In this document: one piece after another, positions 24,517 to 25,816 of the stretch
How positions within the stretch are numbered: position 1 is the first letter of the stretch
Layout: each line of letters opens with the position of its first letter
Source: a phage
DNA length: 48,115 nucleotides
Strand: one strand, 5' to 3'
Sequence record: PX962436.1
The notes under the pieces: model-generated
What the model was told of the DNA's origin: nothing
Databases searched by the model: none
What the model saw: only the letters and a program-made list of their open reading frames with translations
Program-made: the position numbers and the translations under genes

Positions 24517-25816
24517 TCTCCCGCATATTGCCAGCATGGCCTTTAATGAGCCGCTGATGCTTGAACCCGCCTATGCGCGGGTTTTCTTTTGTGCGCTTGC
24601 AGGCCAGCTTGGGATCAGCAGCCTGACGGATGCGGTGTCCGGCGACAGCCTGACTGCCCAGGAGGCACTCGCGACGCTGGCATTATCCGGTGATGATGAC
24701 GGACCACGACAGGCCCGCAGTTATCAGGTCATGAACGGCATCGCCGTGCTGCCGGTGTCCGGCACGCTGGTCAGCCGGACGCGGGCGCTGCAGCCGTACT
24801 CGGGGATGACCGGTTACAACGGCATTATCGCCCGTCTGCAACAGGCTGCCAGCGATCCGATGGTGGACGGCATTCTGCTCGATATGGACACGCCCGGCGG
24901 GATGGTGGCGGGGGCATTTGACTGCGCTGACATCATCGCCCGTGTGCGTGACATAAAACCGGTATGGGCGCTTGCCAACGACATGAACTGCAGTGCAGGT
25001 CAGTTGCTTGCCAGTGCCGCCTCCCGGCGTCTGGTCACGCAGACCGCCCGGACAGGCTCCATCGGCGTCATGATGGCTCACAGTAATTACGGTGCTGCGC
25101 TGGAGAAACAGGGTGTGGAAATCACGCTGATTTACAGCGGCAGCCATAAGGTGGATGGCAACCCCTACAGCCATCTTCCGGATGACGTCCGGGAGACACT
25201 GCAGTCCCGGATGGACGCAACCCGCCAGATGTTTGCGCAGAAGGTGTCGGCATATACCGGCCTGTCCGTGCAGGTTGTGCTGGATACCGAGGCTGCAGTG
25301 TACAGCGGTCAGGAGGCCATTGATGCCGGACTGGCTGATGAACTTGTTAACAGCACCGATGCGATCACCGTCATGCGTGATGCACTGGATGCACGTAAAT
25401 CCCGTCTCTCAGGAGGGCGAATGACCAAAGAGACTCAATCAACAACTGTTTCAGCCACTGCTTCGCAGGCTGACGTTACTGACGTGGTGCCAGCGACGGA
25501 GGGCGAGAACGCCAGCGCGGCGCAGCCGGACGTGAACGCGCAGATCACCGCAGCGGTTGCGGCAGAAAACAGCCGCATTATGGGGATACTCAACTGTGAG
25601 GAGGCTCACGGACGCGAAGAACAGGCACGCGTGCTGGCAGAAACCCCCGGTATGACCGTGAAAACGGCCCGCCGCATTCTGGCCGCAGCACCACAGAGTG
25701 CACAGGCGCGCAGTGACACTGCGCTGGATCGTCTGATGCAGGGGGCACCGGCACCGCTGGCTGCAGGTAACCCGGCATCTGATGCCGTTAACGATTTGCT
25801 GAACACACCAGTGTAA
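24497..25816 (+). CDS. C: head maturation protease/scaffold C (GTG start)
   Basis: 439 codons from GTG 24497 ([16 protein letters not shown]); the ORF-track start at 24362 is an upstream extension. Confidence 0.85.
25211..25816 (+). CDS. Nu3: scaffolding protein Nu3, in-frame internal start within C
   Basis: Met at C codon 239, at the lambda Nu3 map position. Confidence 0.7.
   Translation: MDATRQMFAQKVSAYTGLSVQVVLDTEAAVYSGQEAIDAGLADELVNSTDAITVMRDALDARKSRLSGGRMTKETQSTTVSATASQADVTDVVPATEGENASAAQPDVNAQITAAVAAENSRIMGILNCEEAHGREEQARVLAETPGMTVKTARRILAAAPQSAQARSDTALDRLMQGAPAPLAAGNPASDAVNDLLNTPV

Follow-up and report, generated by a model that had tools for sequence, protein, structure and literature searches.

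A silent BamHI-site mutation in gene C/Nu3 points to DE3-derived laboratory lambda DNA in a 48.1-kb composite sequence

The hexamer GGATAC, which stands in gene C/Nu3 of the analyzed DNA at the place where lambda has the BamHI site GGATCC (J02459 5505-5510), is almost certainly the BamHI-site-1-null allele of DE3, a lambda derivative of laboratory origin that BL21(DE3) strains carry as a prophage, as judged from the sequence comparisons presented below. Throughout, "the window" refers to the whole analyzed stretch of 48,115 bp. DE3 has been described as a defective prophage that resides at the att site of lambda in BL21, with T7 RNA polymerase placed under lacUV5 (PMC4632034). The 25.8 kb around the site is, by its base-for-base agreement, identical by descent to DE3. 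The initial annotation had proposed that the lost site, together with the EcoRI-B deletion, indicates descent of the phage block from a laboratory construct of the D69/DE3 lineage, rather than from a wild phage. This proposal is supported by several lines of evidence: positions 17128-42925 reproduce the DE3 record, the block carries the lambda-PaPa frameshift and the EcoRI-B joint, and it continues through attR into Escherichia coli B DNA. The only detectable effect of the mutation is the removal of the recognition site; it has no biological function in the phage and is a scar of cloning-vector construction. The BamHI-null signature of DE3 was already known; the finding is of practical value only and adds nothing new to phage biology.

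The position of the lost site, which had been mapped by offset, proved exact, with J02459 5505 corresponding to window 25584 at an offset of precisely 20079. Once lambda 5421-5621 and the DE3 record are placed against window 25500-25700 in one alignment, a single column in 201 differs, with C in lambda and A in both the window and DE3. Wild-type lambda indeed has GGATCC at 5505, and no scattered differences are seen in the neighborhood of the site. The change is a single-base C-to-A transversion (window 25588; lambda 5509) at the third position of a gene C codon, converting ATC to ATA and thereby keeping the isoleucine both in C and in the internally initiated, in-frame Nu3 scaffold (Table 1). 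The window and lambda versions of gpC are identical at 439 of 439 positions, in line with the earlier statement that the protein is unchanged. While J02459 contains five BamHI sites (5505, 22346, 27972, 34499, and 41732), an in silico digest of the window yields four GGATCC sites (5065, 5191, 16536, and 43685), none of them within the lambda-derived block, which sits in a BamHI-free span of 27,149 bp. Five of the 18 single-base changes that can destroy this BamHI site are silent. Hence, silence is an outcome often to be expected from selecting viable BamHI-resistant phage, and it carries no sign of rational design; the idea that the silent change is proof of deliberate design was rejected on the same count. 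ATA, a rare isoleucine codon, is used twice in the window copy of C. From the recorded host of phage DN1, E. coli C1a, we infer that one more ATA in C carries no evident cost.

Table 1. Coordinates of the pieces and markers discussed in the text
Feature	Window position	Strand	Remarks
E. coli B chromosome: bioD', uvrB, ybhK, moaABCDE, ybhL-ybhS, ybhF'	1..15722	+	NC_012971.2 796511-812232
Wild lambdoid patch: 5'-truncated DNA methyltransferase, S holin, start of R	15722..17132	+	1.41 kb
DE3-identical block: R (3' part), Rz, bor, cos, Nu1 to J, lom, stf', EcoRI-B joint, ea59', attR core	17128..42940	+	
Four DE3-specific substitutions, end of Rz and bor	18008..18166	+	Lambda 46431, 46434, 46465, 46589
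cos cohesive-end sequence GGGCGGCGACCT	20081..20092	+	DE3 annotation
Gene C, prohead protease/scaffold, S49 peptidase	24497..25816	+	DE3 annotation; mutated codon Ile364
Nu3 scaffold, in-frame internal start within C	25211..25816	+	Lambda annotation 5132-5737; ATG at 25211; mutated codon Ile126
Former lambda BamHI site 1	25584..25589	+	C to A at 25588; same base in DE3 record and phage DN1
stf side-tail-fibre frameshift, lambda-PaPa (laboratory) allele	40901..40925	+	One C missing at 40913 versus Ur-type lambda
Single EcoRI site, fused lambda EcoRI 21226 and 26104	41306..41311	.	EcoRI-B, 4,878 bp with BamHI site 22346, deleted
att core GCTTTTTTATACTAA (attR)	42926..42940	+	Followed by E. coli B ybhB-bioABFCD
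E. coli B right of attR: ybhB, bioA, bioB, bioF, bioC, bioD'	42941..48115	+	NC_012971.2 up to 796510

The identity with DE3 extends far beyond the mutated codon. Against the DE3 record EU078592.1, the window aligns over 17089-42925 at identical coordinates, with nine mismatches, all of which fall in 17091-17127, and none thereafter; the comparison with a BL21(DE3)-type prophage that had been suggested thus returns the same allele in an identical block. Further to the right, window 41605-48115 is 100% identical to BL21(DE3) 790000-796510. The 1.2 kb surrounding the site (window 25000-26200) is matched at 100% only by two DE3 records, by DN1, and by 18 genomes of DE3 lysogens, which include BL21(DE3), C41, C43, BLR, and Rosetta2, and the other lambda records listed for this segment reach at most 99.9%. 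A sequencing or assembly error at this one base has a negligible probability, since the same base recurs in the two DE3 records, DN1, and the 18 complete lysogen genomes, across many strains and accessions.

Comparisons of the left arm with laboratory lambda isolate the BamHI change still more sharply. In BLAST searches, the arm (window 20081-41311; 21,231 bp) scores 39207 bits against DE3 and DN1, which is a perfect match, as opposed to 39201 bits against OM418626.1 (lambda imm434) and PV340536.1 (a recent lambda), a gap equivalent to one mismatch. In the case of OM418626.1, the mismatch falls within window 25000-26200, and both records are absent from the three exact phage matches to the 57-mer spanning window 25560-25616; therefore, both differ from the window there. 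By this reckoning, the sole left-arm mismatch to either record is evidently the BamHI site itself. The chance that a lone random substitution would fall in the arm's single BamHI hexamer is about 6/21231, i.e., about 3e-4. The corresponding score against J02459 is 39185 bits. For this reference, the comparison combined the J53 lambda prophage and Lambda_AGU as stand-ins, exact 25-mer look-ups in the fetched loci, and arithmetic on BLAST bit scores. Set against the wild-type lambda prophage of J53 and Lambda_AGU over lambda 1-21232, the window shows a 1-bp gap plus four substitutions. In the gap and in three of these substitutions it agrees with the lambda-PaPa reference; the fourth substitution is the BamHI change, which is absent from the reference. 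Two further differences set J02459 itself apart. A G after lambda 14266 (window 34346), which lengthens the K ORF as annotated in J53, is found in all the other lambda sequences, including the window, the J53 prophage, and Lambda_AGU, but is missing from J02459, and J02459 has one extra base inside its first 530 nt (window 20081-20610). Both look like features private to the 1982 reference, either errors or variants.

The block carries additional marks of its pedigree. The 1-bp gap relative to the J53 prophage and Lambda_AGU is the stf frameshift, and an exact 25-mer over it is common to the window and J02459; this PaPa frameshift is an independent mark of laboratory ancestry. The EcoRI-B deletion, which had been noted earlier, is present and exact, as the one remaining GAATTC is the fusion product of the two flanking lambda sites. 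The lambda PaPa records (J02459/NC_001416), OM418626.1, and PV340536.1 have the stf frameshift in common with the window, whereas the latter differs from them in having GGATAC for GGATCC, in lacking EcoRI-B, and in four substitutions at lambda 46431-46589. Among the fetched loci, only DE3 and DN1 have these four substitutions (window 18008, 18011, 18042, and 18166), which set DE3 apart from every lambda sequence compared. A 25-mer over 18008/18011 is found in 35 IMG/VR contigs, so that the allele at these two positions is common among natural lambdoid prophages. The cluster looks like an ordinary lambdoid variant, and at least the first substitution is a natural allele. The patch was probably gained by recombination somewhere in the vector pedigree.

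The GGATAC allele is rare in the surveyed collections. Among complete E. coli genomes, 2,826 match the 57-mer stretch, and 19 of these have the exact GGATAC version, namely, 18 DE3 lysogens and the strain YZ22PE68. Of 77 phage records matching the stretch, three are exact, comprising DE3 twice and DN1. In IMG/VR, a 25-mer search recovered at least 120 contigs with GGATCC and one with GGATAC (UViG_3300008886_000010), and in JGI metagenomes and GTDB genomes, where the GGATAC 25-mer alone was searched, it was found in none. The case of YZ22PE68 (NZ_CP171869.1; from pig feces) bears on a possible origin of the block in a wild lambda-like phage with an ATA codon at this position by chance. Its natural lambda-like prophage contains the exact 57-mer with GGATAC (locus 6001-6057), and it is 98.2% identical to the window, with 201 differences in 11.6 kb, 22 of which are in gene C. 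Its ATA codon is an independent natural occurrence, which makes the allele rare in nature, not impossible. However, these 201 differences stand against a single mismatch in 21.2 kb between the window and laboratory lambda, and the window further combines the PaPa frameshift, the DE3-specific Rz/bor substitutions, and an EcoRI-B deletion that is exact to the restriction sites. Hence, a natural polymorphism is a very improbable source of the allele in the window and is already effectively refuted. The allele alone is no proof of laboratory origin; it is the combination of markers that identifies DE3. By the same token, the C-to-A base, the EcoRI-B joint, and the PaPa frameshift can serve together as a tracer of DE3-derived laboratory DNA in genomes, viromes, and metagenomes, and the combination helps flag contamination by, or escape of, expression-strain DNA.

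The mutation finds a natural place in the history of lambda vectors. We take the lambda insertion vector D69 to be the parent of DE3: Mizusawa and Ward reportedly presented D69 as a BamHI insertion vector in 1982, and DE3 is said to have been built in it by Studier and Moffatt in 1986. In D69, the site in int was presumably meant to be the one BamHI site left. Site 1 would have been lost through the C-to-A point mutation at lambda 5509, site 2 with the EcoRI-B deletion, and sites 4 and 5 via imm21 and nin5, a substitution and a deletion, respectively. Alleles abolishing a restriction site were, in that era, generally selected and not designed, and the site-1 mutation would most probably have been obtained by selecting viable BamHI-resistant phage. 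Of the markers expected of D69, two, namely, a mutated site 1 and a deleted EcoRI-B fragment, are visible in the window. With neither the early region of DE3 nor imm21 nor the T7 cassette in the window, the D69 marks at BamHI sites 3-5 are not visible in it. In the DE3 record, the only BamHI sites, at 249 and 4698, lie on either side of the lacI-lacUV5-T7 gene 1 insert, in keeping with a parent vector that, like D69, offered one BamHI site for cloning, located in int. Thus, of the earlier assignment to engineered vectors of the BamHI-site-free, EcoRI-B-deleted type, such as the D69/DE3 lineage, the marker pattern stands, while the description as BamHI-site-free does not, given that the DE3 record keeps two such sites and D69 one. 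Further, D69 is a free vector, whereas the DNA in the window is prophage derived and linked to E. coli B DNA. This linkage also bears on the possibility that the block comes from a different laboratory vector with the same site-1-null allele, such as those of the lambda 1059, L47, or EMBL type. Several vectors of that period carried a site-1-null allele, and their sequences lie outside the searched collections. Yet such an origin has only a very slight chance, as the block matches DE3 without a difference for 25.8 kb, a length that takes in the EcoRI-B joint and all four Rz/bor substitutions, and continues via attR into E. coli B chromosomal DNA 100% identical to BL21(DE3), which is the integration context of DE3. 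DE3 itself remains the favored source. A full-text literature search for D69 and the site-1-null allele gave no usable source, returning only a general description of DE3 (PMC4632034).

Beyond the DE3 block, the architecture of the window is that of a composite of three pieces, each 100% identical to a different source: E. coli B, a wild lambdoid phage, and DE3. The window agrees with the DE3 prophage (EU078592.1/NC_042057.1) over 17128-42925, including GGATAC, the EcoRI-B joint, cos, Nu1-J, and attR. In contrast to the DE3 record, which begins with 17.1 kb of early region, it has host DNA and the wild lambdoid methylase-S-R' patch in that place. No match in the window was found to DE3 record 1-17088 (lacI-lacUV5-T7 gene 1 in int, red, N, imm21, O, P, Q, and S), where a phage-21-type immunity region is annotated. 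Neither the T7 cassette in the int BamHI site nor the imm21 substitution with the nin5 deletion, the hallmarks of intact DE3, is found in the window. Given the absence of the T7 cassette and the early region, the window represents DE3-derived DNA and not an intact DE3 prophage. Despite the unrelated first 17.1 kb, the coordinates of window 17128-42925 coincide exactly with those in the DE3 GenBank record. The chance of such a register arising from an arbitrary rotation of a circle is 1 in 48,115; the register calls for caution and suggests either a deliberate rotation to the DE3 reference or an artificial construction in place.

The host DNA in the window amounts to 21 kb (NC_012971.2 791321-812232), split over window 42941-48115 and 1-15722. 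The last base of the window (BL21(DE3) 796510, in bioD) runs directly into its first base (796511). By this end-to-start continuity, the window behaves as a circle or as a unit repeated in tandem every 48,115 bp. The host DNA is identical to that of BL21(DE3) except for a private single-nucleotide difference inside ybhK, with A at window 3667 versus T at BL21(DE3) 800177.

The wild lambdoid patch has a 100% identical counterpart in a natural prophage carried by E. coli 14EC001 (CP024127), and the longer segment 15722-17400 is matched at 98.9% in 14EC001 and likewise in strains H7 and E89. Its methyltransferase gene is devoid of the first ~119 nt, and its portion of R comprises the first ~60 nt. 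We rejected a derivation of the patch from a cryptic prophage of the B strain, as no B genome is among the best matches and natural isolates match at 100%. On the right, the switch from wild to lambda R takes place within the 5-nt interval 17128-17132, and the hybrid R ORF is intact (17071-17547); an artifact of de Bruijn graph assembly was rejected as the cause of this crossover because the shared stretch is only 5 nt. On the left, at the joint between ybhF and the methylase gene (15722-15723), both genes are truncated and there is 1 nt of microhomology; ybhF, which lies on the minus strand, is cut at NC_012971.2 812232. A 34-mer spanning this junction had no hit in IMG/VR, in JGI metagenomes, or in GTDB genomes; among E. 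coli, phage, and plasmid records, none was found to span it; and the gene-position index contained neither the ybhF/methylase fusion ORF nor the hybrid R protein.

These features are reminiscent of bio-type specialized transduction. Lambda packages DNA within limits of ~78-105% of 48.5 kb. The 48,115-bp window lies within these limits and has one cos, while being without early genes, an origin, or the T7 RNA polymerase cassette. The prophage DNA in it is continuous via attR with bio-side host DNA and is closed by a phage-host joint. A parallel is offered by DN1 (MF374379.1), a transducing phage of the lambda-bio kind that came from the lysate of a BL21(DE3) culture and is annotated as DE3 derived. 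Like the window, DN1 has the DE3 left arm with GGATAC, attR, bio-uvrB-ybhK host DNA, and an illegitimate joint back to phage DNA. Unlike the window, which has no early genes and a wild-phage lysis patch, DN1 has retained imm21, O, P, Q, S, and R, and it is able to plaque on E. coli C1a. They also differ in the extent of the captured host DNA, which is ~10 kb ending in moaA in DN1 as against 21 kb ending in ybhF in the window. In terms of its sequence, the window thus resembles an extreme, defective version of DN1. A full-text literature search for phage DN1 or for recombination between DE3 and lambdoid phages returned nothing.

As to the nature of the molecule, it may be a genuine product of excision or amplification, a tandem repeat that has been collapsed, or an artificial chimera. 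A tentative and rather doubtful scenario is that the window represents a genuine circle or repeat unit of 48.1 kb, lambda-sized and containing cos. Under it, the DE3 late genes would have recombined inside R with a wild lambdoid phage and would then have been illegitimately joined to 21 kb of BL21 chromosome (bio-uvrB-moa-ybhF), giving rise to a highly defective product of the specialized-transduction type. The BamHI-null allele would thus mark laboratory DNA that has departed from a supposedly immobile prophage. If the molecule is real, it would be of modest weight for biosafety and bioprocess work, as a "defective" DE3 prophage would be able to feed mobile hybrids. If the scenario is true, the window and the IMG/VR contig UViG_3300008886_000010 together would point to wild lambdoid phages picking up DE3 late genes. 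That contig (26,965 bp in full; locus 1-12353), the only one with GGATAC in the collection, is identical to DE3 over the equivalent of window 20664-29897, i.e., 9.2 kb of head genes. Over window 17555-20663, it shows 29 differences from the window, and the lysis/porin region that lies upstream of its Rz is an unrelated, non-lambda one. Accordingly, the contig may represent another recombinant between DE3 and a wild lambdoid phage.
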